Source: a virus
Taxonomy: Duplodnaviria > Caudoviricetes
Reading direction: 5' to 3' (one strand)
IMG/VR virus record: IMGVR_UViG_3300020202_000016
Coordinates: 1 to 50,021 of that record
Length of the DNA stretch: 50,021 bases
The position numbers and the translations under genes were made by a program. The notes below the pieces were generated by a model, which saw only the letters and a list, made by a program, of their open reading frames with translations, had not been told where the DNA came from and searched no databases. Positions 10,096 to 23,511 of this stretch are shown here, piece by piece (position 1 is the first letter of the stretch; every line of letters begins with the position of its first letter).

Positions 10096-10395
10096 ATGAA
10101 TGATGCTAGTATGAAACCCTATCTAACTGACGCAGAAATTGCCGATATTTGCAAGCCTCTAACCCAGCCAGCCGCGCAATGTAAATATTTAAGATCGCTG
10201 AATTTACTAGTAAAAGTAAAGCCAGGCGGCGGCCCGCTAATAGGCCGCTCACATTTTGAAAAAGTAATGGGTGGTGCGACCACCTCACAAAATGAAGAGA
10301 GCATGTCAAAAGAAGACGAACCGGATCGATCCGCAATGATTATAAAATTTAGACAAAAGAAAGTAGCCCATGCCACCGAACGGCCGGAAGCGTAA
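10096..10395 (+). CDS. Excisionase-like protein (DUF4224-type)
   Basis: YLTDAEIADIC..QPAAQCKYL..KPGGGPLI; overlaps the integrase start. Confidence 0.7.
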   Translation: MNDASMKPYLTDAEIADICKPLTQPAAQCKYLRSLNLLVKVKPGGGPLIGRSHFEKVMGGATTSQNEESMSKEDEPDRSAMIIKFRQKKVAHATERPEA

Positions 10396-11431
10396 AACTA
10401 ACGACCTGAACTTACCGAGCCGTGTTTATTTTAAGCATGGTCAGTTTTGGTACGTGCATCGTGACAGGCGCTGGGAACCTCTCGGTGCCGATGTAAAAGA
10501 AGCCATCCGGAAAGGCAAGCTTTATAACGACCCAGACAACGTATATGGCACGATGGCATATTACCTTGATGCTTTTATCGTGCACTGCGAAAAGCGCATC
10601 GGTGCAAAATCAAACGCACTCGCACCGCGCACATACGAAGACTATAAACGCAACATCGAGCCGCTGAAAATTTACTTCGGAAAAATGACACCGGCAGCAG
10701 TGAAGCCCAACCACGTTGGAAGTTATTTGGATCTCGGCGTTGAGCTTGATCGACCTATACGCGCAAACCGTGAGAAGGCCTGCCTATCAGCGTGCTTTAC
10801 GTGGATGATTCGGACCGGTGATGCCGGCATAACAACTAATCCGTGCATCGGTGTGCGGCGCAACCCTGAAACTAAGCGGGATCGCTACGTTACCAATGCA
10901 GAATTTCATGCAGTACGACAAGTTGCACCGCTGTCAGTGCGTTCGATGATGGACTTGATCTATCGCACGTTGCAAAGACCAGAAGATATTATTGGATGGT
11001 CGCGCGCTAACATCCAAACCAAGATCGAAAACGGCACGGCGCGCAAAGTTTTGCGGAATGATCAGGGCAAAACTGGAAAAATAGTCGACATCGCAATTAC
11101 CCCCGAAATTGACAGCATTCTGCACGCCCTATTCGGCGCTGCCGGGCCGGTGGTAGGCATGACACTTATCCATCGCAAGAACGGGCGCCAGTACACCTAC
11201 AGCGGCCTCTGTACGATGCTCAAGCGAGCAATTAAAAAAGCTGGCGTACCGATGTTTGGTTTTTACGATTTGAAGGGTAAGGGCGCAACTGATATGTGGC
11301 AAAGCGGTCAGCCGATCGAACTGATCCAATTGCTATGCGGCCACGAATCATCCAAGACAACGGAGGTATATATCAAGCAACGTTGGGTTGCCACAGCAAC
11401 ACCAAATCAGGTAGCATTCGTGTCTAATTAA
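10370..11431 (+). CDS. int: Tyrosine integrase
   Basis: R(TLQRPED), K(QGKT), FYDLKGK, LCGH and Y(TTEVY) catalytic motifs. Confidence 0.92.
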   Translation: MPPNGRKRKTNDLNLPSRVYFKHGQFWYVHRDRRWEPLGADVKEAIRKGKLYNDPDNVYGTMAYYLDAFIVHCEKRIGAKSNALAPRTYEDYKRNIEPLKIYFGKMTPAAVKPNHVGSYLDLGVELDRPIRANREKACLSACFTWMIRTGDAGITTNPCIGVRRNPETKRDRYVTNAEFHAVRQVAPLSVRSMMDLIYRTLQRPEDIIGWSRANIQTKIENGTARKVLRNDQGKTGKIVDIAITPEIDSILHALFGAAGPVVGMTLIHRKNGRQYTYSGLCTMLKRAIKKAGVPMFGFYDLKGKGATDMWQSGQPIELIQLLCGHESSKTTEVYIKQRWVATATPNQVAFVSN

Positions 11432-11671
11432 GTGGCTCGAACCCGCATACAATCTATGTTCAGTTTTCGATTTGATAGCCGCGTTGTTAGACAATCGACA
11501 ATACAAATTGCTAGGTATTATGCGGCTCTCAGCATAGTTTAGGCATGAGACTGTTAATCCGCAGGTCCCTGGTTCGAGTCCAGGTTGGGGAGCCAATAAA
11601 ATCAATAACATAGGCCGTATTTAGCGGCTTCTATCCTGAACGTATTAGACATATTGTTAGACACTGTCTAA
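11421..11671 (+). other. attP: core is the 3' half of tRNA-Asn(GTT) (11549-11595), flanked by TTAGACA/TGTCTAA arm repeats
   Basis: GACTGTTAATCCGCAGGTCCCTGGTTCGAGTCCAGGTTGGGGAGCCA with no 5' half; arm motifs at 11421, 11487, 11645, 11657 and 11665. Confidence 0.85.
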
Positions 11672-12094
11672 CAAACTACTTGAAATGAACTGCCCGGAAT
11701 TGCCGGATAGTTCCAACACGCATGCACATTACGCCGGAGTTTTGGGAAGCTCGTTAGCTTGTAGTGTGCAGTCGTGTTGGTGAACGAAAAAAGGACGCTT
11801 TTTTTGGAGTGGCATTTCTCTCTATTGAATCGCAAGTTTGATTCTTGCCACTAACACATCCGCGCTGGCGATGTAAAAGACCAGCACCAACACAAAGCGG
11901 GCAGCGTGGAAGGAAAAGCGCTTACCTAGGAATAGTTTCACAAAGTGCTTGATAATTTCCGATTTCGGCGCGTTGCTTACACTCGTAGAACACGAGAGCG
12001 TTACGGACAATTGGCAAAACCGAGCGGTGTGGGCCTATCTTGAGCAAATGCCGGCAGACTGGCCGATTGTTTTGTACTGGCACTAAGGAAAAGA

Positions 12095-12412
12095 ATGAAG
12101 AAAGTATCTGAATTAGATTTCTTGGTAGCCGAGCACTTGACCACGCTAGATCAAATGATCGAACGCTTAAAATTCGCGCGCAAGAAAATCGGGCACGGCG
12201 ATGTTGCGGTATGTGTTGCAGTTCCAGGTTCCAATGGATTCACAACGCCTTACATTCGCGTCACTCTCCCCACAGTGCTTCTAGCTGAAGGCAGCACAAG
12301 AGGTACAGAAGCATTGGTGATTGGAGCTTTTCCAGCGCCGCGAAATCCTCCGATACCAACAACGTTCCCATTTAAAGTTATAGAGAAAGGCAACGACAGT
12401 GAAAGTAATTAA
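12095..12412 (+). CDS. Hypothetical protein overlapping the rtcB start
   Basis: AAGGA RBS; 105 aa ORF. Confidence 0.55.
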   Translation: MKKVSELDFLVAEHLTTLDQMIERLKFARKKIGHGDVAVCVAVPGSNGFTTPYIRVTLPTVLLAEGSTRGTEALVIGAFPAPRNPPIPTTFPFKVIEKGNDSESN

Positions 12413-13586
12413 TGAAGACGGCTCTCGTCCGATTAAAATTTGGACGGACTATGTAGAAGATTCTGCTTTAGTCCAGTTAAAAAACTTGGCGCGGCTACCA
12501 TTTATTGCCGGCAATGGCGTTGCCTGTATGCCGGATGTTCATGCCGGAATAGGTTCGACTGTCGGCACCGTCATCGCGACAAACAAAGCAATTATTCCGG
12601 CCGCTGTTGGGGTTGATATTGGTTGCGGCATGAATGCGATAAGGCTGTCACTCAAGGCTTCTGATCTGCCGGAATCGCTTATAGAAATCCGCCATCAGAT
12701 CGAACGAGACATTCCTCTTGGTGCCGGCGGTGCAAACAAAGAGCGCTGCTATCAGCAGGGAATCATTGAGAGCGGCCACTTAAGGGCCGTGTCTACAGGT
12801 ATGGGCATCATCAATGATTCTTTGATACATAAAGCAGCAGTTCAGTTAGGTTCGCTGGGTTCAGGTAATCACTTTATAGAAATTTGTCTCGATGAAAATC
12901 AAGACGTTTGGATCATGCTTCACTCTGGTTCGCGTGGAGTGGGAAATAGAATCGGGACACACTTTATCGAAAAAGCCAAACGCGACATGGAAAGGTTTTT
13001 TATCAACCTTCCAGATAAAGACCTGGCCTATCTACCCGAAGACACCGAAACGTTTAACGATTACGTTAGCGCCGTTAGCTGGGCCCAAGACTACGCTTTA
13101 GAAAATAGAAAGCGAATGATGGAAAAAGTTATTGCTGCGCTTTCTGTGCATATCCCGATTGGATTTTCAATCACACAAGAAGCGATCAATTGCCACCATA
13201 ACTATATCGCCCTAGAAAACCATTTTGGTCAAAACTTATGGGTTACACGCAAGGGCGCTATACGAGCACGCGAAGGTGATCTAGGAATTATTCCCGGGTC
13301 AATGGGGCAGCGCAGCTATATTGTGCGCGGCAAAGGCAATCCAGAATCCTACTGCTCATGCTCACACGGCGCCGGACGTAAGATGAGCCGCACGCAAGCG
13401 CGAAAAACCTTCACGATTGCTGACTTACAATCGCAAACTGAAGGTGTTGAATGCCGCAAAGACAACTCCGTATTAGATGAAATTCCAGGCGCTTATAAAT
13501 CAATTGATGAGGTGATGGCAAACCAAACTGATCTTGTCGATGTCGTGCATATATTGAAGCAAGTCTTGTGCGTCAAAGGTTCTTAA
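12399..13586 (+). CDS. rtcB: RtcB RNA ligase
   Basis: MPDVHAG, VGVDIGCGM, GSLGSGNHFIE, LHSGSRG, HHNY, SHGAGR and DEIPGAYK motifs all intact. Confidence 0.96.
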   Translation: MKVINEDGSRPIKIWTDYVEDSALVQLKNLARLPFIAGNGVACMPDVHAGIGSTVGTVIATNKAIIPAAVGVDIGCGMNAIRLSLKASDLPESLIEIRHQIERDIPLGAGGANKERCYQQGIIESGHLRAVSTGMGIINDSLIHKAAVQLGSLGSGNHFIEICLDENQDVWIMLHSGSRGVGNRIGTHFIEKAKRDMERFFINLPDKDLAYLPEDTETFNDYVSAVSWAQDYALENRKRMMEKVIAALSVHIPIGFSITQEAINCHHNYIALENHFGQNLWVTRKGAIRAREGDLGIIPGSMGQRSYIVRGKGNPESYCSCSHGAGRKMSRTQARKTFTIADLQSQTEGVECRKDNSVLDEIPGAYKSIDEVMANQTDLVDVVHILKQVLCVKGS

Positions 13587-13598
13587 ATAGACTCGGTC

Positions 13599-14129
13599 AT
13601 GAAAAAAATACTAACCGCCCTGCTCTTATTGCCGTGCCTCGCGCTTGGCGCACCGCAACCATTGCCAACCGGCGCGACATACGAGGTTGCATTCTCTCCG
13701 CGCGGACAGTCGCTGCAGATCGTCCTGAGTGGCATCAACGGCGCGCGCGAGTCGATCCTAGTTGCGGCGTACCCGTTCACGAGCAAGCCGATCGCCACCG
13801 CACTGCTCGACGCTCACAAGCGCGGGGTACGCGTGCAAATCGTCGCGGACAAGAAGAGCAACAGCGGCAAATACAGCGCGGTTACGTTCCTCGCAAACCA
13901 GGGTGTACCGGTGCGACTCAACGACCGCTATGCGATACATCATCATAAGTTCATGGTCATCGATGGCACAACGTTGGAGACCGGATCGTTTAACTATTCT
14001 GCCGGCGCGGTTAACAAGAATGCTGAGAATGTGATCGTGTTGCGCAACGCGGCACCGGTGGCGCAGGCCTATGCGCGCGAGTGGCAGCGGTTGTGGGATG
14101 AAGCCTACGAACTTAAACCCGCTTACTAG
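13599..14129 (+). CDS. nuc: Secreted PLD-family (Nuc-like) endonuclease
   Basis: Signal peptide; single HKD motif HHKFMVID..GSFNYS..NAEN. Confidence 0.88.
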   Translation: MKKILTALLLLPCLALGAPQPLPTGATYEVAFSPRGQSLQIVLSGINGARESILVAAYPFTSKPIATALLDAHKRGVRVQIVADKKSNSGKYSAVTFLANQGVPVRLNDRYAIHHHKFMVIDGTTLETGSFNYSAGAVNKNAENVIVLRNAAPVAQAYAREWQRLWDEAYELKPAY

Positions 14130-14192
14130 CAAGTCGCGCTGCATATGTTATGATGCGCGCACTGAATTACAATACAGGATAACCATCAATAG

Positions 14193-14665
14193 TGAGGTTC
14201 CCTCGATATTTCGTCCACCATCAGGTGATGTTATGCAGCGGATTTTTTCTGAGTTTGCTGATTCCTCCAGTGGTCGAGATATTGAATGGGAGATTGATAG
14301 CCAAGTGTCGAATGTTGGCGAGTTCGATTATAAAAGACTTCAATGTACTCAAAGCTGGCAGCCTTCATTTCGGTATGGGTAGCGTAACGTAGGCCATGAT
14401 ATCGCTCGTTTTTGAAACTGTTAAACCAGCTCTCGGTCGGGGCGTTGTCCCAGCAGTTTCCTTTGCGACTCATCGAACAGGTCATGCCAAATTCCTTGAG
14501 CTTGTCTTGAAACATCTGACTCGCGTATTGGCTGCCGCGATCCGAATGATGCATAACGCCGGCATCCGGCCGACGGCGAAACCAGGCCATGGTTAAAGCA
14601 TCCGTCGCAATATCGCTCGTCATACGAGGCTTGAGTGACCAGCCTATGATTTCTCGATTGAACAA
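14193..14665 (-). pseudogene. IS3-family remnant: transposase C-terminus and right end
   Basis: HSDRGSQY..GNCWDNAPTESWFNSFK..YNRTRQHSTLGY; IR-like TGAGGTTCCCTCG at 14193; 5' truncated. Confidence 0.85.
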
Positions 14666-14720
14666 ATAACCTGAATGTTGTTATGCCTTGGGAGCTATTA
14701 TTACCACCTGAACCACCCCA

Positions 14721-14933
14721 AATGAGTTTGCCTTATGAAGAAGCCGGAACAGTTGGAACCGCAACCGCCGAGCAAGAGTGCCTTTGACGATCTGTTGAAG
14801 CGAATGCTATCAACACCGCCAAAGCCGCATCCGAAACCAGCGAAGAAAGTCGCAAATAAAAAAACCGCCAAATAGGCGGTTTTTTTATTTTAGGACCGAT
14901 CGTATAGCTGGGTTTCCTTAGTACACACTTCCG
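14721..14933 (+). mobile_element. Possible IS1595-family right-end remnant with small ORF 14735-14875
   Basis: NEFA fragment followed by FDDLLKRMLSTPPKPH peptide and a putative end GTACACACTTCC. Confidence 0.4.
14858..14886. terminator. Bidirectional intrinsic terminator
   Basis: A-tract, ACCGCC-aaata-GGCGGT, T-tract. Confidence 0.75.
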
Positions 14934-14961
14934 AATTTTTTGGTTGATTGCAGATAATATC

Positions 14962-14990
14962 TTGACAAGCGCAGTTTGTGTGCGTATAGT
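14962..14990 (+). promoter_or_regulatory. sigma70 promoter of the Y RNA/rsr operon, with an inverted repeat in the spacer
   Basis: TTGACA-N17-TATAGT; GCGCA-N7-TGCGT at 14969-14985. Confidence 0.8.
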
Positions 14991-14998
14991 GCGATTTG

Positions 14999-15123
14999 TG
15001 CTTGGTGTAGATAACGGTTACTTCCATTGGGCGGAGAGGGTCGCGGGTTCGAGTCCCGTCAGTCGGCAACGACTGTAGCTCAGCGGTAGAGCATCTAAAT
15101 CTCCGTTATCGTTTGTTCCGGCA
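14999..15123 (+). ncRNA. yrlA: YrlA-type Y RNA (circularly permuted tRNA mimic)
   Basis: Stem GATAACGG/CCGTTATC; T-arm GCGGG-TTCGAGT-CCCGT, then acceptor-like CAGTCG-GCAA-CGACTG, then D-arm GCTC-AGCGGTA-GAGC; upstream of the Ro gene. Confidence 0.85.
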
Positions 15124-15131
15124 AAGTTTTG

Positions 15132-15221
15132 TGGGTAGTGTAGATTGCGGTTACTTCGGTTAGGGCCAACGCAAGTTGGCTGCTGGTTCAAGCCCAGCGT
15201 CCGCCATCGTTTGTTCTCCCA
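15132..15221 (+). ncRNA. Second Y-RNA-like ncRNA
   Basis: Shares GTGTAGATnnCGGTTACTTC and CCGnnATCGTTTGTTC with the first RNA; GCAA hairpin and T-arm GCTGG-TTCAAGC-CCAGC. Confidence 0.78.
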
Positions 15222-15259
15222 ATGCCAACATCGAGCCTCTTTTTTAATCAGGAGGCATT

Positions 15260-16579
15260 ATGCGTACTAATGTCAAATATGCAGGCGCTGAAAAAACATA
15301 CGAAGGCGCGCTATCTACTAGAGTCATGACGCCAGCCGAAGAGCTGCGCCGCTCGGTTATGGCGTGCATGCTCTTCGAAAATTCTTTCTATGAATCCGGC
15401 GCAGATGCTGCGGGCCGCATGCAGGCCCTGGTCAAGCAGGTTCCATTCGCGGATGCGGCGCAAATTGCAATCGATGCTCGCGAAAAAATGAAACTTCGGC
15501 ATGCGCCATTATTTTTATTGCGCGAACTGCTTCGGTATCATAAAGGGCGTGAGGTAGGCGATTTGATCGCTCGTGTAATCCAGCGCCCTGATGAGCTCGG
15601 GGAGTTGCTAGCTTTGTACTGGAAAGACGGAAAAGATCAACCCCTGACCTCACAGCTCAAAATCGGATTGGCTCGCGCTCTCAAAAAATTCTCACCGCAC
15701 CAATTAGCAAAATGGAATAAGGACAGCGCAGTAAAGCTGCGCGATGTTTTATTCTTATCGCACGCAAAACCAAAGAATGATGAACAGGTTAATTTATTTA
15801 AACAGTTAGCTGAAAATACCTTGCCAACCCCGGACACTTGGGAGGTTGCACTCTCAGGCGGTGCCGATAAAAAAGAAGTTTTCACTCGGCTAATAACCGA
15901 AAAGAAACTTGGCGCACTCGCCCTATTGCGTAACTTGCGCGGAATGCTAGAGGCCGGGGTATCAGAAGATACTATTCGCGACGGACTAACAAACATGGAT
16001 GCGGAGCGAATCTTACCATTTCGCTTTATCTCTGCCGCAAAACACGCTCCGCGTTTAGAGGACGCGCTAGAGCAAGCCATGTTCCGCTGTCTTGCGGAAA
16101 GCCCAAAACTTAGCGGCAAGACTGCTTTACTAATCGACCATTCCGGATCAATGCAAAGTCCTGTGTCAGAAAAATCGGAAATTTCTAGATTCGATGCAGC
16201 AGCAGCCCTAGCGATGATATTGCGCGAAACAGCCGAGCAATGCCGCATATTTACATTCTCGGATCGATTGATCGAAGTCCCGCCGCGCCGTGGCTTTGCT
16301 CTGGTTGAGGCCGTTCGTCAAGTAATTAATCCGGCAGAAACGCTACTAGGCGCTGCCGTAAAAATGGTCTATCTACAGTTTCCAGAATGCAATCGAATCA
16401 TCGTTATAACTGATGAGCAATCACGGGATCGGCCGCCCCACCCACAGGGGGGTGGCTATATTATCAATGTAGCGGGATATCGAAACGGCATTGGCTATGG
16501 CCCATGGGTAACAATTGATGGATGGTCGGAGGCGGTAATTGAGTATATTCGAGCGAGCGAAGAAACCGCTTCCCAGTGA
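15260..16579 (+). CDS. rsr: Ro60/Rsr RNA-binding protein (TROVE + vWA)
   Basis: QRPDELGELL, KLRDVLFLSHAKP, TWEVALS, ALLRNLRGM and LPFRF motifs; MIDAS DHSGS...ITDEQ; AGGAGG RBS. Confidence 0.93.
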   Translation: MRTNVKYAGAEKTYEGALSTRVMTPAEELRRSVMACMLFENSFYESGADAAGRMQALVKQVPFADAAQIAIDAREKMKLRHAPLFLLRELLRYHKGREVGDLIARVIQRPDELGELLALYWKDGKDQPLTSQLKIGLARALKKFSPHQLAKWNKDSAVKLRDVLFLSHAKPKNDEQVNLFKQLAENTLPTPDTWEVALSGGADKKEVFTRLITEKKLGALALLRNLRGMLEAGVSEDTIRDGLTNMDAERILPFRFISAAKHAPRLEDALEQAMFRCLAESPKLSGKTALLIDHSGSMQSPVSEKSEISRFDAAAALAMILRETAEQCRIFTFSDRLIEVPPRRGFALVEAVRQVINPAETLLGAAVKMVYLQFPECNRIIVITDEQSRDRPPHPQGGGYIINVAGYRNGIGYGPWVTIDGWSEAVIEYIRASEETASQ

Positions 16580-16733
16580 CATAAAAGAAGCGCGGCTTGC
16601 TGCTGGCTTAACGCAACAGCAAGCCGCTGAATTGATCGGTTATTCGCGTCGTGCATGGCAAGAATGGGAATGCGGTCGTCGCAATATGCGGTTCTTGGTT
16701 TTTGAAGCATTTAAAATTGCTACGGAAAAATAG
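16539..16733 (+). CDS. XRE-family HTH regulator
   Basis: IKEARLAAGLTQQQAAELIGYSRRAWQEWECGRRNM; overlaps the rsr 3' end. Confidence 0.85.
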   Translation: MSIFERAKKPLPSDIKEARLAAGLTQQQAAELIGYSRRAWQEWECGRRNMRFLVFEAFKIATEK

Positions 16734-16759
16734 CTGTTTTTACAGATCGATTGTCAACC

Positions 16760-17041
16760 ATGACCTACTTATTTGAAGATCGAGAACCAGATTTTGTCAA
16801 CGAGAAAGGGGTTAAATGGTGGCTAGATAAAGCAATATCGGATTACGCACAAAAAGCAGATCAGAACGGTATTAAGGTTGATGCAACTGGGTTTGTGATC
16901 GAGATGCAAAATGGTTTTCGTAGTTATGTGTTGCTATCGAAGGGTGGTAAGATTTTAAGCGATGACCAGAAGCTGGAAGCAATATATTGTAAAATTGACA
17001 TACTAAAACTTGCTGAGAAATATGATCGCCAAGACGCGTGA
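16760..17041 (+). CDS. Hypothetical phage protein
   Basis: ORF downstream of the XRE gene. Confidence 0.55.
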   Translation: MTYLFEDREPDFVNEKGVKWWLDKAISDYAQKADQNGIKVDATGFVIEMQNGFRSYVLLSKGGKILSDDQKLEAIYCKIDILKLAEKYDRQDA

Positions 17042-17419
17042 GGAGGAATTCATGAACATTAAGTATGTTGTAGTGCCGGACGAACCAATTCAAGGAATAA
17101 CGGCGGACAATATGATGGAAAATTCTTAGAGGATTTTCTTGATTACGATGGTGAGCCCTCTCTTTATGTAAGATTATGGCATGTCCTTTCGCGGGAAGAG
17201 ATGATGCAGCTATCTAAAGACTGTGTAACCTGGAGGAATCCGCAGGATGAATATATCAGGAAACGAATATCGAACGCTGGCAGAAATCAGTTTGATTATG
17301 AATTCAGGCGAACGATTCACTTCTATCCAGAGCCTTTTGATGCGAAATAAGTGGATATATACAGAAGGTATACATATCGAGAATGATATGTATAGAAAAG
17401 TCGATTTTTTAGATACATC

Positions 17420-17495
17420 GGGCAGGGAGCTCAAAGGTTAGAGCAGGAAACTCATAATTTCCAGGTTGTTGGTTCAAGTCCAGTTCTGCCCACCA
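17420..17495 (+). tRNA. tRNA with CAT anticodon (Ile2 or elongator Met)
   Basis: 76-nt cloverleaf: GGGCAGG/TCTGCCC, GCTC/GAGC, GGAAA-CTCATAA-TTTCC, TTCAAGT T-loop, encoded CCA. Confidence 0.88.
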
Positions 17496-17722
17496 AACAG
17501 AGGTAATTATGTTAAGCGGCCTATATTTAGCAATGCTCAATCCTATGATGACGGATGATGGGCTCTCTCAAATGACGAGGGGAAACCTTTAACGCAAAAC
17601 TAAAAATGATAAAAAGTGTTGAAGATGGACTGGAAGGCTTACGGGGAGAAGAAAAGCAGGAATACATCCGTATTGTGCTTCCACAGCTTATGACTTTAGT
17701 TTTGATGTAAACAGAGGCGCGA

Positions 17723-18130
17723 ATGAAAACACTAGAACAGCATTTTTGTGACTGGGAATGTTCGGCCTTTGGGTTTGGCTACGGAACAGGCGAGGAGCAT
17801 GTTATTGGTGCCTTAAAGTCATTCTTTGAGCTATGCAATAAAGGAGACGGGCTCCGCGCCTACGATCACAAAGATATTGAAAAAGAACTCTCTCCGGCAA
17901 CGGCATGGCTTCTTATCAATAAACTATGCAGCTTAGATGCCATTGAATACGGAACCTCGCCTCGCTATGCATGGCTCACAAAAAAGGGAGAAAGACTCAA
18001 GGAGTTTTTTGGAAAACACTCGACAGAAGAGCTTCTTAATATTTTGTGGGAGAACTTTGAAACTTGCGGCGACAGTTCACCGAAAGAAGATAATCCGCCC
18101 ACAAACCCATTTTGGCATGACAGCATATGA
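17723..18130 (+). CDS. Hypothetical phage protein
   Basis: GAGG RBS; FGFGYGTGEEH..IEYGTSPRYAWLT. Confidence 0.65.
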   Translation: MKTLEQHFCDWECSAFGFGYGTGEEHVIGALKSFFELCNKGDGLRAYDHKDIEKELSPATAWLLINKLCSLDAIEYGTSPRYAWLTKKGERLKEFFGKHSTEELLNILWENFETCGDSSPKEDNPPTNPFWHDSI

Positions 18131-18733: not shown

Positions 18734-18936
18734 TTCTGTATTTTGAACCAGATGATAAGAAATTGGGAAATTGACAGACTACGTGCGTTAGCGATGTGAA
18801 TTGACCCCAGTTTACTAGACACCAGTAAGCCTATAAATTTAGGCCACTAGGAGGTGTCATTGTAACCCTCCCGTAAAATCAGTCCAAGCATAACTAGAGG
18901 TCTTTGGGCAAACTATGTAGCCAAAGGAGGCCTCAA

Positions 18937-19203
18937 ATGCGCAAGAGCAGATTCAACGAGACCCAGATCATGGGGGTATTAAAGGCGGTCGAAGCAGGTC
19001 GAACTGTCAGAGAAGTATGTAGGGAGCACAGCATCGCGGAAGCGACGTACTACCAGTGGAAATCGAAGTATGGCGGCATGGAAGCGGCTGACATCAAGCG
19101 CCTGAAGGAACTGGCAGACGAGAACCGCAAACTCAAGATGATGGTGGCGGACCTAAGCCTAGAGAACCGAGCGTTCAAGGAAGTCATAGGTTTAAAGCGT
19201 TAG
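18937..19203 (+). CDS. IS3-family orfA
   Basis: MRKSRFNETQI..TYYQWKSKYGGM..ENRKLK. Confidence 0.9.
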   Translation: MRKSRFNETQIMGVLKAVEAGRTVREVCREHSIAEATYYQWKSKYGGMEAADIKRLKELADENRKLKMMVADLSLENRAFKEVIGLKR

Positions 19204-20042
19204 CCCCCGCCCAGAAGCGCTGGTATGCGGAGCAACTGCAAGCGCAAGGCTTAAGCCAGCGGCAAGCCTGCAAAGCGGTTAGGCTGTCGCGCTCGGTGTT
19301 CTCGTACCAGCCGCGCAGCGAATCCGATGAACCGATCATCGTAGTGCTGCAGGAATTGGCGGAACGCTTTCCGGAGCGGGGGTTTAGCAAGTATTTCAAG
19401 GTGCTGCGACGGCGCGGGCATGGCTGGAATCACAAGCGTGTGTATCGCGTATACCGAGCGCTGGGATTGAATCGTCGCCGGATGGGTAAGAAACGGCTGC
19501 CGGCCAGAACGCCAAACCCGCTGGTGGCGCCGGAACAGATCAACCGGAGTTGGTCAATGGATTTCATGAGTGATGCACTGTGGTGTGGCCGGCGATTTCG
19601 CACCTTCAATGTGATAGACGACTGCAGTCGTGAAGTGTTGGCAATCGAGATTGATTTGAATCTTCCAGCCACGCGGGTGGTTAGGGTATTGGAACGGATC
19701 GTCGCCTGGCGCGGCTATCCGGATCGGATTCGCATGGACAACGGCCCGGAGTTTATTGCGGCGGCGTTGGCCGATTGGGCGCAGCAACATGGCGTAACCC
19801 TGGAGTTCATCGAACCGGGGCGGCCTATGCAAAACGGTTTTATCGAGCGCTTCAACCGCAGCTACCGCGAAGGCGTATTGGATATGTATGTGTTCAGGAA
19901 CCTAAACGAGGTGCGCCAACGGACCGAAATATGGATGACCGATTACAACGAGCAGTTACCCCACGATTCCCTCGGCGATCTCACACCCGTCGAGTATCGT
20001 GTTCTTCACCAGCCCGAAACCTCTAGTTTTAACTGGCACTGA
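19191..20042 (+). CDS. IS3-family orfB (DDE), entered by -1 frameshift
   Basis: WSMDFMSD, DNGPEF and NGFIERFN motifs. Confidence 0.9.
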   Translation, partial: FKALAPAQKRWYAEQLQAQGLSQRQACKAVRLSRSVFSYQPRSESDEPIIVVLQELAERFPERGFSKYFKVLRRRGHGWNHKRVYRVYRALGLNRRRMGKKRLPARTPNPLVAPEQINRSWSMDFMSDALWCGRRFRTFNVIDDCSREVLAIEIDLNLPATRVVRVLERIVAWRGYPDRIRMDNGPEFIAAALADWAQQHGVTLEFIEPGRPMQNGFIERFNRSYREGVLDMYVFRNLNEVRQRTEIWMTDYNEQLPHDSLGDLTPVEYRVLHQPETSSFNWH

Positions 20043-20126
20043 TTGGGGGAGGTTTACAATGGACGTGTCTCTATATATAGCTGGCGATGTATATCCGGCC
20101 CGAATGAGTCTCACAAAGGGTTTCTC

Positions 20127-21202
20127 ATGAAACAAAACTCTCCGCAAATATTAAAAACCGTGCTTGAGCGAATACATACGTTTGAGCCGGATAAGCTAAT
20201 GCCTTTTACAAAATTTCTGCCATTGAATCAAAGTAAAAAGAATGGTTTACATTCTGTGGAGATATGCGCAGGGGCTGGTGGTCAAGCGCTTGGGCTCGAA
20301 CTTGCAGGGTTCAATCATGCAGCTTTGGTGGAAATCGATCGTGAGGCTCAAAATACGCTTAGATTGAACCGCCCTCATTGGAATGTCCTGGACAATGGTG
20401 ACGTTTGTCAGTTTTCCGGGAGAGATTACAAAGGTGTTGAGCTTCTTGCGGGGGGGTGCCTTGTCCTCCATTTTCCAGAGCAGGGAAACAGCTAGGCCAA
20501 GATGATGATCGTGATTTATTTCCCGAGGCTGTAAGAATTGTAGATGAGTGCCGTCCAAGCGCAGTCATGCTAGAAAACGTCCGGGGTTTGCTTGATACAG
20601 TCTTTGATGAGTATAGAGCTAAGATAATCAGAGATCTTAAGAAATTAGGATATGTAGCTGAATGGCGGCTTCTCAACGCCTCCGATTTTGGGGTTTCACA
20701 ACTCCGGCCAAGAGTTCTGTTTGTTGCAATTCGTAAAGATCTGACTGAAGGATTTTCTTGGCCAGAAGGGACGGGGAGAAGACCTCCAACGGTCGGTCAT
20801 CTCTTGTATGACCTAATGGCGGAAAGAAATTGGAAAGGTGTGAAAGCTTGGCGCGAACGTGCTTGTGATATTGCCCCGACGCTTGTAGGCGGCAGCAAAA
20901 AACACGGAGGCCCTGATCTTGGGCCGACACGGGCTAAGCGCGCGTGGGAGAGCCTTGGGGTAGATGGGAAAGGGCTTGCTGATCTTGCGCCCGATACGGA
21001 TTTTGTTGGGTTGCCGCGCCTTACGGTACGGATGGCTGCAAGAATTCAAGGTTTTCCTGACTCCTGGAAATTAAGCGGTAAAAAGACCGCTGCTTACCGT
21101 CAAGTTGGTAATGCGTTTCCTCCGCCTGTTGCGCAAGCGGTCGGGCAGCAAATTGCTGCCGCTTTATTTGCGGCCTCAAAAAGAAAACTTCAAAGGGCTT
21201 AA
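20127..21202 (+). pseudogene. C5-cytosine DNA methyltransferase (M.NgoMIV/M.NaeI-like), frameshifted at a G7 tract
   Basis: EICAGAGG, (GGV)PCPPF, ENVRG, QLRPR, TLVGGSKKHGGPDLGPTR and QVGNA motifs; split at 20450-20456. Confidence 0.88.
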
Positions 21203-21204
21203 AA

Positions 21205-21546
21205 ATGACGCAACGGGGAACAGGGGCAAGAGCAAAGCTGCGTGCTCATTTTCTTGCGAATGTCGGCAGAGTAATGAATTCTGATGAACTTTTCGAAGCA
21301 TCAGGCAGAACTAGTGAATGGGGCCGCCGTGTTCGTGAGCTGCGAAATGAGGAAGGTTATCAAATACTGACTCATAATGATAGAAGCGGCCTTAAGCCAG
21401 GCGAATATCTTCTGGAAACCACCAAACCGCAGCCAGCTTTTTCCAGGTCAATAAGCAAAGAAACAAGAGCGTACGTTCTTGACCGGAACGGCTTTACTTG
21501 TCAGATGTGCGGGGCAGTAGCGGGGGAACCTCACCCTTATGAATGA
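21205..21546 (+). pseudogene. HNH-type endonuclease, truncated before the HNH core
   Basis: WGRRVRELR..RAYVLDRNGFTCQMCG..GEPHPY, then fused to IS3 orfB. Confidence 0.75.
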
Positions 21547-22393
21547 GGGGTGCTATTCGGTGCGCCAACTCTGTCACGCGATGGAAGTTCATCCAAGCGG
21601 ATATTACGCTTGGCGAATTCAGCCCGATTCGGCGCGTGCGCTGGAAGATCGACGCCTGGTAGGCAGAATCAAGCAATCATGGCTCGAAAGCGGAACGGTC
21701 TATGGCTATCGTAAAGTGCACGACGATTTATTAGAACTAGGTGAACGCTGCGGAAAGAACCGAGTGTATCGTTTGATGCGCACTCATGCGATGCGTGCAC
21801 AAATAGGTTACCGGCGCCGTCCTCATGCACAGACAGGAGCGGCATCCGTAATTGCAGAGAATCGTCTACAACGACAGTTTAACGTCGCTGAACCTAACCG
21901 CGTGTGGGTTACCGACATTACTTATATTCATACGCAAGAAGGTTGGCTGTTTCTGGCCGTAGTGCTCGACTTGTTCTCGCGTCAAGTGATCGGTTGGTCG
22001 ATGCAAGCGCGCATGGATCGCGAGCTGGTACTCAATGCGTTACTAATGGCCGTCTGGCGTCGACAGCCTCAGCAATCTGTGATCGTGCATTCGGATCAAG
22101 GCAGCCAGTTTAGCAGTCACGATTGGCAGAACTTCCTGAAAGCGCATAACTTGCAACCCAGCATGAGTCGGCGCGGCAATTGCCATGATAATGCGGTTGC
22201 CGAAAGCTTCTTCCAATTACTCAAACGCGAACGGATTCGCCGTAAAATTTACCGCACTCGAGAAGAGGCGCGCTGCGATATATTCGATTACATCGAAATG
22301 TTTTATAACTCAAAACGTCGTCACAGCCATAGTCGTCGGCTCTCTCCGGTAAACTATGAGAAGCAGTACTTCGAGAGGCTTGCGCGTGTCTAG
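21539..22393 (+). CDS. IS3-family orfB transposase lacking its orfA
   Basis: WVTDITY, HSDQGSQF and GNCHDNAVAESFF motifs. Confidence 0.9.
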   Translation: MNEGCYSVRQLCHAMEVHPSGYYAWRIQPDSARALEDRRLVGRIKQSWLESGTVYGYRKVHDDLLELGERCGKNRVYRLMRTHAMRAQIGYRRRPHAQTGAASVIAENRLQRQFNVAEPNRVWVTDITYIHTQEGWLFLAVVLDLFSRQVIGWSMQARMDRELVLNALLMAVWRRQPQQSVIVHSDQGSQFSSHDWQNFLKAHNLQPSMSRRGNCHDNAVAESFFQLLKRERIRRKIYRTREEARCDIFDYIEMFYNSKRRHSHSRRLSPVNYEKQYFERLARV

Positions 22394-22437
22394 GAAATCG
22401 GGGTCAATTCAATGTATAGCATATTTGTGGTGGGAAT

Positions 22438-23511
22438 GTGAATTCTGATATTCAGAAATTAAGAGCGCTGGCGGTTATTCTTGTAATATTTGGACATATG
22501 CAAGGAAGTTTATTCCATAGCCCAAACATCCTCACAGAGTTTCTCTCGCACTTTTGGCTGGGTGGTGGCGTTGATCTATTCTTCTGTATTTCTGGTTTTG
22601 TTATAAGTAAAAAAATAGTATCTATCATTGATAATCACAAAAACAATCAGAATGAACAGTGGCAAATAATAAAAGAATTCTGGATAAAAAGGGCCTTTCG
22701 TTTATTGCCATCAGCTTGGTTCTGGATGTTATTTCCACTAGTCGGCAGTCTCTTCTTCAATCAGTCCGGTGTCTTTGGACTGGAGGCAGCAAACCTTAAA
22801 AGTGTTGCGGCGATCATTTTATATGTTGCGAACTTTGCGCAGGCGTTCGGGCCTGGGCTTGGTGCAAACGGGTCATATTGGAGCTTAGCACTGGAAGAGC
22901 AATTTTACTTTGCATTCCCGTTTTTTCTGCTATTCGTCTCAAAACGCGTGCGCTGGTTGATCCTACTGTTAGCCATCATTGCACTAACAAGCCACTGGCC
23001 TTCGTATAGCGTTTGGAGGTTGGATTCAATCATTTTCGGCGTATTACTATATTTCTTCTCAAGATCGGTTGGATCTAAATTGTTCGAACCGCGCGTCATG
23101 GAGACGCGCTGGGTTTCGTTTTCGATAGTCGGAATACTTGTATTGAGCCTAACTTTAATAAATCAAGCTATCCCAGGAGCTCAATATAAATACACAATTG
23201 TTGGCTTCTTTACCGCGATTCTTGTATTTATGGCCTCTTTCGATAAAAACTACATTCTTCCGTCGAAAAGACTAAACGCGGCTTTACGGTACATCGGCAA
23301 TCGTAGTTATGCGATTTACCTGGTGCATATGCCAGCATACCTACTAACAAACGAAATTTGGAATAAAAAAGAAGTAGGCTCATTAACAATCGCAATAACC
23401 GGACTCTCTCTTATTTTTGCTTTTTCTGAATTAAGCTATAGATTTATAGAATCGCCGATGAGAAATTTTAAGGGGCGCAGAGAACCGAACGCTCTGCTTG
23501 TGGATCGATAG
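22438..23511 (+). CDS. Acyltransferase-3 (OafA/Oac-like O-acetyltransferase)
   Basis: LRALAV, GVDLFFCISGFVI, RAFRLLP, WSLALEEQFY and SYAIYLVH motifs; multi-TM. Confidence 0.9.
   Translation: MNSDIQKLRALAVILVIFGHMQGSLFHSPNILTEFLSHFWLGGGVDLFFCISGFVISKKIVSIIDNHKNNQNEQWQIIKEFWIKRAFRLLPSAWFWMLFPLVGSLFFNQSGVFGLEAANLKSVAAIILYVANFAQAFGPGLGANGSYWSLALEEQFYFAFPFFLLFVSKRVRWLILLLAIIALTSHWPSYSVWRLDSIIFGVLLYFFSRSVGSKLFEPRVMETRWVSFSIVGILVLSLTLINQAIPGAQYKYTIVGFFTAILVFMASFDKNYILPSKRLNAALRYIGNRSYAIYLVHMPAYLLTNEIWNKKEVGSLTIAITGLSLIFAFSELSYRFIESPMRNFKGRREPNALLVDR

Follow-up and report, generated by a model that had tools for sequence, protein, structure and literature searches.

A P22-like temperate phage carries rtcB, a Ro60–Y RNA cassette and a tRNA(CAT) gene in a probable accessory island next to attP

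The window analyzed here, i.e., the whole stretch of DNA, represents a complete 50,021-bp temperate phage of soil origin. A previous sequence-only reading had labeled it P22-like, and this assignment is supported by the portal (phrog_156), head closure Hc3, ejection protein, terminase, O-like replication protein, NinB and CI-like HTH genes. When we searched for backbone relatives of this phage, none were found (integrase at most 55% identical, no megablast match). An accessory segment (11.6–17.5 kb) is flanked by attP and int on one side and by tail genes on the other. All elements named by the sequence-only reading were present downstream of int and attP, and they are co-oriented on the plus strand. 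The following features were located:

10370–11431, plus strand: int, tyrosine integrase (PF00589, 51.7 bits; phrog_1 integrase, 137.5 bits)
11549–11596, plus strand: attP core, 3' half of a tRNA-Asn(GUU) gene from the anticodon loop to CCA (read directly; matches to chromosomal sites)
12095–12412, plus strand: ORF105, function not assigned, 14-nt overlap with the rtcB start (ORF list)
12399–13586, plus strand: rtcB, intact ligase joining RNA 3'-phosphate or 2',3'-cyclic phosphate to 5'-OH (PF01139, phrog_1075)
13599–14129, plus strand: nuc, intact nuclease of the PLD (HKD) family that has a signal-like segment at its N-terminus; imported DNA (PF13091, 94.4 bits)
14231–14665, minus strand: remnant of an IS3-family OrfB transposase, C-terminal half only (partial rve, rve_2 and rve_3 matches)
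about 14857–14887, no strand assigned: bidirectional intrinsic terminator-like hairpin (A-run, CCGCC/GGCGG stem, T-run; read directly)
14962–14990, plus strand: sigma70-type promoter, TTGACA-17-TATAGT, 14 nt upstream of Y RNA 1 (11/12 consensus matches)
15004–15119, plus strand: Y RNA 1, YrlA-like, with T-arm, capped acceptor-like hairpin and D-arm within the closing stem (RF02553)
15137–15217, plus strand: Y RNA 2, shorter, sharing the closing stem and flanking motifs of Y RNA 1; it has a GC hairpin and a hairpin resembling a T-arm but lacks a D-arm (signature pattern, MFE fold)
15260–16579, plus strand: rsr, phage-type Ro60 of 439 aa, TROVE HEAT ring plus vWA with a DxSxS MIDAS motif (PF05731, PF25045, phrog_850)
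16539–16733, plus strand: XRE-family HTH protein of 64 aa, 41-nt overlap with the rsr 3' end (HTH_31, HTH_3)
16751–17041, plus strand: ORF96, function not assigned (ORF)
17420–17495, plus strand: tRNA with anticodon CAT, encoded CCA and paired G1-C72, tRNA-Ile2-like (ARAGORN; Rfam, 60.1 bits)

The attP core shares 94–96% identity over 47–48 nt with sites on the chromosomes of Neisseria and Acinetobacter (9 records), and its borders (11549 and 11596) are the exact junctions of metagenome contigs that carry real tRNA genes. The proposed position of the cassette beside attP proved correct. At 18.9–23.5 kb there are two further IS3 elements, an O-acetyltransferase and a Dcm-type methylase that is split; altogether, three IS elements or remnants and this methylase lie within 12 kb. 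Contigs from a second soil study show the same island arrangement with no base differences from the window where these are listed; the sole exception is a single base missing at 14873 in one contig.

The rtcB gene scored 426.1 bits with PF01139 (cut-off 27) and 513.2 bits with phrog_1075. All metal- and GMP-binding motifs align with the solved structures 2EPG and 4DWR, and these data confirm that rtcB is intact, but the protein scores under the NCBIfam equivalog cut-offs. Its closest relatives (at most 77% protein identity) are singletons in viral contigs lacking Rsr, and the nucleotide identity to the gene of Bordetella phage PHB04 is 68%. The neighbors of RtcB are not conserved, the biggest neighbor cluster comprising 7 of 80 loci. 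ORF105 had no match in Pfam, PHROGs, NCBIfam or PADLOC, its Atlas scores were all below 0.8, and no homologue was found in any fetched viral or metagenome Rsr or RtcB locus, including the 80 RtcB relatives. The promoter scan found no promoter for ORF105-rtcB, and no sigma54 promoter was found. As the sequence-only reading had stated, rtcA and rtcR are absent; PF01137 and PF06956 gave 0 matches in the whole record.

Downstream of rtcB, the GC content rises to 0.58 in nuc, compared with 0.46–0.50 in the surroundings (0.46 in rtcB). Matches of nuc to NucT and DrmC were weak and all under the cut-off. The transposase remnant is 46% identical to residues 145–273 of the intact transposase at 21539–22393. 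The suggestion that nuc and the IS debris represent a later insertion fits the GC difference and the truncated transposase, but the second soil sample has the same arrangement; we consider a later insertion plausible. The terminator-like hairpin was missed by a simple terminator scan and drives several weak Rfam terminator-type matches, and the promoter at 14962–14990 is the only strong plus-strand site within 11400–18000. Together with the foreign DNA, these signals divide rtcB-nuc from the Y RNAs into two predicted transcription units. A pattern search recovered the promoter-leader layout in 9 of the 15 loci examined, the window included.

Two tRNA-like noncoding RNAs had been proposed directly upstream of the TROVE-vWA gene, and both were recovered. 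For the first, the YrlA model RF02553 matched at 15014–15124 with 50.5 bits (E 1.5e-9); since the gathering score of this model is 69, Y RNA 1 is missed in gathering mode. Y RNA 2 gave no Rfam match but shares the signature. The pattern GYGTAG-N8-WMCWTC occurs at exactly two places in the window (expected 0.07), and these are the two Y RNAs. The full signature of this clade reads GGYGUAG, stem, WMCWUC ... stem, CGYUUGUUCC. In Y RNA 2, 6 of 7 closing-stem positions are paired and the outermost 5'/3' pair is changed from G-C to A-U (read directly). A consensus fold of 9 Y RNA 1 homologues revealed compensatory changes in 17 of 23 pairs, and in the closing stems of 22 Y units, which have 21 different sequences, 144 of 154 positions are paired. 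In 70 of 73 matching loci the 5' signature lies on the plus strand upstream of rsr; the remaining three matches are on the minus strand (one RtcB locus, two Int loci).

The assignment of a TROVE-vWA gene was confirmed by family matches of Rsr (PF05731, 42.8 bits; PF25045, 29.2 bits; phrog_850, 150.5 bits) and by a full-length match (E 2.7e-29, residues 11–433) to the Ro60 of Thermus phage phiLo (9KOP/9L5Y). With the bacterial Rsr equivalog model it scored 18.8 bits at a cut-off of 900. The predicted HTH regulator corresponds to the 64-aa ORF (HTH_31, 33.3 bits; HTH_3, 27.7 bits; repressor family phrog_2328). ORF96 (96 aa) was also considered as the HTH gene and was rejected, since it had no family match (Pfam, PHROGs, NCBIfam, PADLOC) and the HTH lies in the preceding ORF; tblastn found no match to it in any fetched viral or metagenome locus. 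Among the Rsr loci, an XRE orthologue overlaps rsr in the same way in 7 of the 80 viral ones and in 11 of the 47 from metagenomes. The closest Rsr genes (73–79% identity) lie in phage contigs with the same promoter and Y array and with unrelated upstream context. Relatives in other phage and metagenome contigs repeat the promoter, the leader GTGCTTGGYG, 2–5 Y units, rsr and the overlapping HTH gene, all of this without RtcB. Thus, promoter, Y RNAs, rsr and XRE gene move as one self-contained cassette. The XRE protein probably represses its own promoter. In the window the candidate operator is a weak one, and only loci L124 and L183/L196 showed perfect 7-bp dyads.

ARAGORN and Rfam both recovered the predicted tRNA(CAT) gene. 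When its matches in E. coli genomes were sampled across the ranking, 12 of 12 were annotated as tRNA-Ile. In 44 ORFs, AUA accounts for 128 of 689 Ile codons. Lambdoid phages have rare-codon tRNAs of the ileZ/argN type, and the tRNA of the window, Ile2-like with anticodon CAT and borne by a lambdoid temperate phage, resembles them. Judged by its similarity to tRNA-Ile2, the tRNA is more likely an AUA codon supplement than a spare for cut tRNAs, and its proposed role in replacing cleaved tRNAs is not favored. Lysidine modification of this tRNA is presumptive. In a relative (L006/L117), a tRNA(CAT) is paired with tRNA-Arg(TCT) downstream of rsr-HTH, but this tRNA(CAT) is unrelated in sequence to that of the window (44/76 identical). 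Genes for tRNAs flank 29 of 80 Rsr loci, where 219 of 221 share the orientation of rsr, and 17 of 80 RtcB loci, where 68 of 72 are co-oriented, compared with 0 of 12 integrase loci. Since phage rsr and rtcB are each often found beside co-oriented tRNA genes, the shared tRNA theme is real.

The sequence-only reading had proposed one RNA repair and surveillance kit, and it had named beforehand a lack of rtcB-rsr linkage in related phages as a finding against it. We quantified this linkage among relatives of the two genes, as opposed to relatives of the phage: RtcB was found in the flank of 0/80 viral (reached by profile), 0/13 genome and 1/47 metagenome Rsr loci, and Rsr within 8 kb of 0/80 viral RtcB loci. 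For the closest Rsr genes (73–79% identity), RtcB was present within 8 kb in 0/6 viral contigs and PF01139 in 0/5 whole records of the carriers. The sole metagenome case (L215) has, in series, YrlA, RtcB, an AAA ATPase resembling BCS1 and an Rsr of phage type. In jumbo phages with both genes, rtcB and rsr are 61 kb (CcrPW) or 40 kb (Brevundimonas phage Gurke) apart. Conserved linkage is therefore absent from the loci covered, and the adjacency of rtcB and a Ro60-Y RNA cassette is new for phages and is not conserved. The gene and RNA identities of the proposed kit stood, but the kit reading found only partial support, considering the lack of linkage among these relatives and the separate units split by foreign DNA.

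We favor, with a probability of roughly 0.6, the reading that the segment is an attP-proximal accessory (moron) island with three separately acquired RNA-metabolism modules and not a co-evolved operon. Insertions at a hot spot would have gathered three modules of known kind, each mobile by itself, and imported junk would lie in between. The first, ORF105-rtcB, may seal 2',3'-cyclic phosphate or 3'-phosphate ends to 5'-OH ends, the kind of ends that anticodon nucleases and many ribotoxins leave. The second runs from the sigma70 promoter and leader through two Y RNAs and rsr to the overlapping XRE gene. Its Y RNAs would bind the Ro60 ring via the conserved closing helix and, by analogy with Deinococcus, Salmonella and phiLo, may link the ring to an exoribonuclease of the host, such as PNPase, that acts on structured or damaged RNA. 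The third, the tRNA-Ile2-like tRNA(CAU), would supplement AUA decoding. Acting in parallel on tRNA and other stable RNA, the modules might sustain translation in the infected, induced or lysogenic cell; these biochemical roles in this phage, and a benefit to phage or lysogen, are what we infer from the parts.

A co-adapted repair kit, in which RtcB religates tRNAs, the Ro60-Y RNP scavenges or acts as decoy and the tRNA replaces targeted species, appears rather unlikely. Such a kit would defeat tRNA-cleaving defenses or give the lysogen ribotoxin tolerance, as a phage analogue of Salmonella rsr-yrlBA-rtcBA with XRE control instead of RtcR. The parts are indeed adjacent and co-oriented, rtcB and rsr are both intact, both families lie near phage tRNA genes, L215 is a second RtcB-Rsr neighborhood within this Rsr clade, and Salmonella prophage induction has been tied to Rtc signal generation (PMC9879122). 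However, the missing linkage, the terminator, separate promoter and foreign DNA between the units, and the lack of rtcA, RtcR and a sigma54 promoter argue against it. Moreover, the tRNA(CAT) looks like an AUA reader, and the YrlA-type module has no anticodon arm in its predicted structure, so that it would hardly be a simple decoy for anticodon-loop nucleases.

The literature background of the sequence-only reading agrees with what Hughes 2020 (PMC7790460) and Chen 2014 (PMC4201824) describe. According to the former, rsr, Y RNAs and rtcB are repeatedly linked in bacteria and, in Salmonella rsr-yrlBA-rtcBA, co-induced by cleaved tRNA. This precedent favors the kit and counts against separate tools, since the adjacency in the phage may then be selected and not accidental. 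The L215 order (YrlA-RtcB-AAA ATPase-Rsr), the weak XRE operator in the window and the failure to find an ORF105-rtcB promoter also count against separate tools. The locus resembles that of Salmonella Typhimurium in having a Ro60 orthologue, two Y RNAs (one tRNA-like, one shorter) and an adjoining RtcB on one strand. However, the Salmonella operon is controlled by RtcR and sigma54, whereas the phage locus lacks rtcA, RtcR and a sigma54 promoter. The order also differs (rtcB ... Y RNAs-rsr versus rsr-Y-rtcBA), and the phage-borne locus consists of two transcription units split by terminator, sigma70 promoter and foreign DNA, with an XRE gene coupled to an rsr that fails the bacterial equivalog.

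A further reading is that the phage took over a bacterial rtcB-(rtcA)-Y RNA-rsr locus in one piece and that nuc/IS later took the place of rtcA. It would agree with L215, where RtcB lies upstream of Rsr, but is very improbable, considering that the closest Rsr genes sit in phage contigs with the same promoter and Y array, different upstream context and no RtcB, that the closest RtcB genes are viral singletons lacking Rsr, and that Rsr reached 18.8 of the 900 bits set for the bacterial equivalog. Least probable is hitch-hiking cargo without current function in a dump of decaying insertions: the three IS elements or remnants, the split methylase and the missing rtcB promoter would fit, but none of rtcB, rsr, nuc, the HTH gene and the tRNA is truncated and all keep their catalytic or binding motifs, pairing is kept in both Y RNAs, and the second-soil-study contigs match the window, where differences are listed, apart from the one base.

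Relative to known phage systems, the modules are of familiar kinds. Like T4 Pnk and Rnl1, which repair PrrC-cleaved tRNA-Lys (PMC7824862, PMC4933390), RtcB is a phage RNA ligase able to undo anticodon nuclease damage, but it joins 3'-phosphate or cyclic phosphate directly to 5'-OH with no end healing, and the target nuclease here is only hypothetical. RtcB and TROVE proteins of jumbo phages have been described as RNA repair tools (PMC7824862). Stand-alone accessory RtcB without rtcA is found in other phages (phrog_1075; PHB04; Pseudomonas, Caulobacter and Brevundimonas jumbo phages), but that of the window has a Ro60-Y RNA cassette as its neighbor and follows the overlapping ORF105. Phage Ro60 with its Y RNAs is reported to bind host PNPase (PMC12135203), and the Ro60-like gp130 to counter the Ppl defense (PMC11482910). 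Two Y RNA genes directly upstream of a Ro60 gene of about 440–500 aa are shared with phiLo (Yrl1/Yrl2) and with the loci reported for mycobacteriophages, CcrColossus and Bacillus phage G (Chen 2014). In contrast to these, the clade of the window has its own Y signature, lacks the published GNCGAA motif and scores under the Rfam gathering threshold, and the window adds the overlapping XRE gene, a temperate attP-proximal island and, 1.4 kb ahead of Y RNA 1, an RtcB. Xanthomonas phage MET23-P3 and CcrPW likewise gave Y RNA matches upstream of rsr.

The RNA-related genes of this phage are members of known families, assembled in an unusual but unconserved arrangement. They are located in an accessory region of 12 kb between attP and the tail genes, which runs on the + strand throughout except for an IS remnant.

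Features of the integration site and the accessory region (positions in the window, strand in brackets)
10370-11431: tyrosine integrase gene (int), directly before the attP core
11549-11596: attP core, by direct reading the 3' half of a tRNA-Asn(GUU) gene from anticodon loop to CCA
12095-12412 (+): ORF105, no family, overlaps the rtcB start by 14 nt
12399-13586 (+): rtcB, PF01139, 426 bits
13599-14129 (+): nuc, intact HKD nuclease gene, GC 0.58 vs 0.46 for rtcB
14231-14665 (-): IS3 OrfB transposase, C-terminal half
about 14857-14887: terminator (A-run, hairpin, T-run)
14962-14990 (+): promoter TTGACA-17-TATAGT, 11/12 consensus matches
15004-15119 and 15137-15217 (+): two Y RNAs
15260-16579 (+): rsr, the phage-type Ro60 gene
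16539-16733 (+): 64-aa XRE HTH gene, 41-nt overlap with the rsr end
16751-17041 (+): ORF96, accompanied by more small ORFs without family matches
17420-17495 (+): tRNA(CAT)
18904-23511: two IS3 elements around a split Dcm-type methylase gene, then an O-acetyltransferase gene

The window takes in an entire virus record of 50,021 bp with direct terminal repeats (IMG/VR class) and is 100% complete according to the CheckV estimate. On its - strand we found P22-like structural genes coding for the portal (phrog_156), the head closure protein Hc3, an ejection protein, the major head protein and the large and small terminases, and the P22-type portal, head-closure and ejection profiles matched were phrog_156, phrog_578, phrog_598 and phrog_283. 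The early region is lambdoid (O-like replication protein, NinB, Gam-like protein) and a CI-like HTH protein is encoded divergently from the early genes. The sequence-only reading had called the phage P22-like, and with P22-type portal, head-closure and ejection genes plus integrase, attP and repressor module all present, the window is judged by its genes to be a P22-like temperate podovirus. The segment 11549-11596 shares 94-96% identity with chromosomal sites in nine Neisseria and Acinetobacter records, and metagenome contigs with real tRNA genes join phage sequence exactly at 11549 and 11596. The segment is an attP core, made in the customary way from the 3' end of a tRNA gene. In a plasmid search, the sole match was the 47-48 nt tRNA-Asn core. 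A megablast search with 22 kb of structural genes against phage records returned nothing, no match to E. coli genomes was obtained in the search for backbone relatives, and the integrase relatives in viral contigs (at most 55% identity) have only an Xis-like neighbour in common. No backbone relative of the phage was found in these searches.

The sequencing runs holding the window are two soil metagenome DNA runs from two studies, with no RNA run among them. In the second study, the listed contigs agree with the window base for base over this region, except for one base omitted at 14873 in one contig. They bridge rtcB-nuc, nuc-IS-terminator and rsr-HTH-ORF96 in the same order as in the window, and a variant free of nuc and the IS piece was not seen among them.

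RtcB matched PF01139 over its full length (profile positions 1-426 of 426) with 426.1 bits at a cut-off of 27, and its motifs MPDVHAG, GVDIGCGM, GSGNHFIE, LHSGSRG, CHHN and SHGAGR align with their counterparts in the solved structures 2EPG and 4DWR. From the Pyrococcus RtcB structures, we take these motifs to supply the metal-binding Cys/His/Asp residues and the GMP-accepting His. With all of them aligned and the profile covered completely, rtcB is intact, as had been proposed. The protein scored below the NCBIfam equivalog cut-offs (PRK09588.1, 178.8 vs 407; release_rtcB, 141.7 vs 271.8), and its top NCBIfam match was partial (433.9 bits in two stretches vs 1050) and fell on the exteins of an intein-containing RtcB relative. 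On the basis of this match, we place the window RtcB in a subfamily apart from E. coli RtcB and the PrfH-linked RtcB2. The reported lack of rtcA and rtcR holds for the record, which gave 0 matches each for PF01137 and PF06956. Sigma54-type patterns occurred at chance frequency (53 found vs 54.3 expected); the intergenic stretches ahead of ORF105-rtcB and of the Y RNAs held none on the + strand, and the promoter scan found no promoter for ORF105-rtcB. ORF105 itself returned no family match and Atlas scores below 0.8. Among the viral RtcB loci there was no conserved neighbour, the largest neighbour cluster comprising 7/80 loci. PADLOC gave no match for RtcB, Rsr or the small ORFs and only weak generic PLD (DrmC) and HTH matches; nuc was rejected as a DISARM component, its DrmC match being only of this weak, generic PLD kind.

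Rsr consists of 439 amino acids and passed the profiles PF05731 (42.8 bits vs a cut-off of 23) and PF25045 (29.2 vs 27.7). Its residues 11-433 align (E 2.7e-29) with Thermus phage phiLo Ro60, for which a crystal structure exists, and at the MIDAS motif (DxSxS) the sequence LIDHSGSM is aligned with LVDVSGSM of phiLo Ro60. Thus, the assignment as a TROVE-vWA gene was confirmed. The family is phrog_850, and the bacterial Rsr equivalog NF041674 scored 18.8 bits vs a cut-off of 900; by these scores, the window Rsr is a member of a divergent phage-type clade. Relatives of about 50% identity were present in 83 phage records, which include crAss001, Caulobacter and Brevundimonas jumbo phages and 43-kb Xanthomonas phages.

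An orthologue of the 64-aa HTH protein overlaps the rsr stop in 6/6 first relatives, in 7/80 profile-found viral loci (the best 80 of 478; all seven with Rsr at least 62% identical) and in 11/47 metagenome loci. The promoter and a leader ending in GTGCTTGGYG were found in 9 of the 15 loci examined by pattern, window included, and the Y arrays hold 2-5 units. From promoter to HTH stop (about 14.96-16.73 kb), the cassette behaves as one mobile unit. Perfect 7-bp dyads occur in the promoter spacer of the relatives L124 (GCACACA-C-TGTGTGC) and L183/L196 (GCACGCA-C-TGCGTGC), and the window spacer holds a 4-bp dyad only. The XRE protein may repress the promoter at 14962-14990, a proposal in which we have low confidence. 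A 64-aa XRE homologue of 49% identity is also encoded on contig L109 (12232-12396), about 1.1 kb downstream of a related integrase, and this contig is without Rsr.

The Rfam YrlA model (RF02553) matched positions 15014-15124 with 50.5 bits and an E-value of 1.5e-9, which refers to a 4.3-kb search. This score is below the gathering score of 69, so that a default Rfam search misses Y RNA 1, and the phage relatives scanned in the same way were likewise below (30-52 bits). In Chen et al. 2014, YrlA is defined operationally by E < 5e-5, a distance of at most 4 kb from Ro60 and the same strand (PMC4201824). With its E-value of 1.5e-9 and a position 136 nt upstream of rsr on the + strand, Y RNA 1 falls within this definition. 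Upstream of rsr, Y RNA matches were obtained in Xanthomonas phage MET23-P3 and Caulobacter phage CcrPW among three loci scanned, and the third (L002) gave a tRNA call only. The YrlA motif published for the region near the 5' end, GNCGAAN0-1G (PMC4201824), is absent from the window; by direct reading, the position holds UUACUUC in the window and WMCWUC in the clade.

On comparing the units of the window with those of six viral contigs (Rsr identity 73-79%), we found the order GGYGUAG, variable 7-nt arm, WMCWUC, variable module, complementary arm and CGYUUGUUCC end. Over 22 units, 144/154 positions of the closing arms were paired and 21 different arm sequences were present. The consensus fold of nine aligned long units has 23 predicted pairs, 17 of them with compensatory changes, and contains a closing stem, a T-arm-like hairpin (GGUUCGA loop), an acceptor-like hairpin closed by a short loop and a hairpin resembling a D-arm. 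This predicted fold is the permuted tRNA-like module described for YrlA (PMC4201824). Y RNA 2 is shorter and has no D-arm; its closing stem is paired at 6/7 positions, and a GC hairpin plus one resembling a T-arm are retained. At its outermost positions, the consensus G is replaced by A on the 5' side and the consensus C by U on the 3' side, changes that would preserve a terminal pair. Single-sequence folds of the two RNAs were no better than those of shuffles (z -0.45 and -1.11), and these energies are unremarkable; the structures are supported by covariation and not by energy.

The signature GYGTAG-N8-WMCWTC matched the window twice (0.07 expected), exactly at both Y units. Both units lie 43-256 nt upstream of the rsr start codon on the same strand, and together with the YrlA match and the closing-stem pairing this substantiates the claim of two Y RNAs directly upstream of rsr. 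Matches were present in 73 of 241 fetched loci; 70 of these are Rsr loci, including MET23-P3, CcrPW and acidobacterial MAGs, with the match on the + strand and mostly just upstream of rsr. Outside the Rsr loci, the signature was seen only on the - strand (1/80 RtcB loci, 2/12 integrase loci). Thus, by pattern matching, the signature marks units upstream of rsr throughout the phage-type Rsr clade, and the YrlA scores of 30-52 bits in scanned loci vs the gathering score of 69 leave this clade under-annotated. Just upstream of rsr there is also a conserved hairpin, (A)GCCUY ... GGAGGC(U), at 15228-15262 of the window and in L004, L007, L008 and L009. It can pair the rsr Shine-Dalgarno with an upstream anti-SD, its loop length differs among the relatives, and it may serve translational control of rsr.

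The sequence-only reading had combined RtcB, the Ro60-Y particle and the tRNA into one linked repair and surveillance kit, and on this point the linkage test that it had set went against it, as far as relatives of the two genes can tell. For the closest viral Rsr loci, RtcB was absent from all 8-kb flanks (0/6) and from the whole records behind five of them (0/5; three records at least 95% complete). The profile-found viral Rsr loci (best 80 of 478; 60 with at least 5 kb upstream and 56 with at least 5 kb downstream) gave 0/80, the genome-contig Rsr loci, all from Acidobacteriota MAGs, 0/13 and the metagenome Rsr loci 1/47 (17 with at least 2 kb upstream). In the reverse direction, no Rsr was found within 8 kb of viral RtcB loci of 42-77% identity (0/80). 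The sole positive is the 4.9-kb metagenome contig L215, where a YrlA-like RNA (46 bits) is followed, between 370 and 4863, by RtcB, then by a BCS1-like AAA ATPase and last by a phage-type Rsr. Among named phages with Rsr, MET23-P3 and RsoM2USA are without RtcB, and where both genes are present they are 61 kb (CcrPW) and 40 kb (Brevundimonas phage Gurke) apart. These tallies indicate that linkage of rtcB to this Rsr clade is rare, in a survey of gene relatives and not of backbone relatives of the phage. In the window itself, imported DNA, a terminator and a promoter intervene between rtcB and the Y-rsr unit. Neighbouring genes in a moron island should not be taken for an operon.

The tRNA(CAT) gene is present on the + strand as claimed. 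Since G1-C72 is paired and the anticodon stem lacks a run of three G-C pairs (direct reading), an initiator type was ruled out. The gene matched 5,216 records among 5,426 E. coli genomes, and 12/12 rows sampled across the ranking were annotated as tRNA-Ile (79-82% identity over positions 9-64 or 9-76). A tRNA-Ile with a CAT anticodon is the lysidine-dependent species. In 44 phage ORFs, 18.6% of the Ile codons (128 of 689) are AUA, and we read the gene as a tRNA-Ile2-like, putatively AUA-decoding supplement. The idea of a conserved partner tRNA was rejected; the tRNA(CAT) of the relative L117 is unrelated.

A shared neighbourhood emerged from the tRNA genes called by ARAGORN in the flanks of the fetched loci; calls in the 500 nt ahead of the anchor gene were discarded as possible Y RNA modules.

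tRNA genes in the flanks of Rsr, RtcB and integrase loci
Rsr loci (n = 80): tRNA genes in 29, within 2 kb in 18, at least five tRNAs in 12, co-oriented 219/221
RtcB loci (n = 80): tRNA genes in 17, within 2 kb in 10, at least five tRNAs in 4, co-oriented 68/72
Integrase loci (n = 12, 188 kb, a small control): tRNA genes in 0

It can be seen that phage rsr and phage rtcB both tend, in these loci, to sit in co-oriented phage tRNA islands. This habit offers a plain reason for their mutual proximity and for the nearby tRNA without a dedicated partnership, and it points to tRNA maintenance as a common theme. In the viral contigs L126, L128, L136, L150 and L170, rsr is located inside co-oriented arrays of 22-31 tRNA genes, which suggests that Y RNAs and phage tRNAs may be co-transcribed or share processing. 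CTA-anticodon tRNAs (amber suppressor type; ARAGORN label Pyl) were seen in the rsr phage contigs L132 (1149-1223) and L135 (2009-2083), and tmRNA genes in L132 (3295-3630) and L136 (8699-9092).

RtcB ligates RNA ends carrying a 2',3'-cyclic phosphate or a 3'-phosphate to ends with a 5'-OH, and Y RNAs dock onto Ro60 rings through a conserved helix; PNPase is a partner of the resulting complex in Deinococcus, Salmonella and phage phiLo (PMC7790460, PMC4201824 and PMC12135203 jointly). In the prophage, ORF105-rtcB would follow a regenerated, co-oriented tRNA-Asn gene at a distance of about 500 nt, and read-through from it could express rtcB. The Y-rsr-XRE unit has its own strong promoter and may be autoregulated. 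In such a scheme, RtcB, the Ro60-Y unit and the tRNA would shield the translation machinery, or tune it, while the phage infects, is induced or persists as a prophage. Since prophage induction generates an Rtc-activating signal in Salmonella (PMC9879122), action during induction is, by analogy, an attractive scenario for this phage. For phage Ro60 and Y RNAs, the literature proposes PNPase hijacking in a Thermus phage (PMC12135203) and countering of the Ppl defence in Bas63 (PMC11482910). We give a chance of roughly one in five to the reading that the island serves lysogenic-conversion RNA protection, that is, a phage-made, RtcR-independent Rtc/Ro60 response in which RtcB and an XRE-gated Ro60-Y RNP would together preserve tRNA and rRNA function, the Ro60-XRE cassette being a mobile plug-in for tRNA islands. 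If true, it would provide cover against anticodon nucleases and ribotoxins in an attacked lysogen and in SOS-triggered prophage induction.

Phage Ro60 with Y RNAs is already established, and phages with RtcB and jumbo phages with both are also in print (PMC4201824, PMC12135203 and PMC7824862). No small temperate phage with rtcB at most 1.5 kb from a Ro60-Y cassette was found in the literature searched or in 160 viral loci, and for the coupled XRE gene and the clade-specific Y RNA signature no description was found in that literature. Burroughs and Aravind 2016 (NAR 44:8525), who reportedly surveyed repair systems linked to Ro, and the supplement of Chen 2014, said to list 22 phages, may bear on these points, and either may already include a phage with neighbouring RtcB and Ro60. 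The comparison yields a usable signature for a Y RNA clade that the Rfam YrlA model scores below threshold. For experiments, the window also provides a compact model: some 1.9 kb hold the promoter, both Y RNAs, rsr and the coupled XRE gene, with an RtcB gene and a tRNA adjoining, in a small temperate genome.

At the distal end of the accessory region, IS3-family orfA/orfB pairs at 18904-20042 and 21205-22393 flank a Dcm-type cytosine methyltransferase gene, which is split into two ORFs (20043-20495 and 20456-21202). Beside the tail genes, an O-antigen acetyltransferase-like gene (phrog_3333; 22438-23511) occupies the usual P22-like lysogenic-conversion position.
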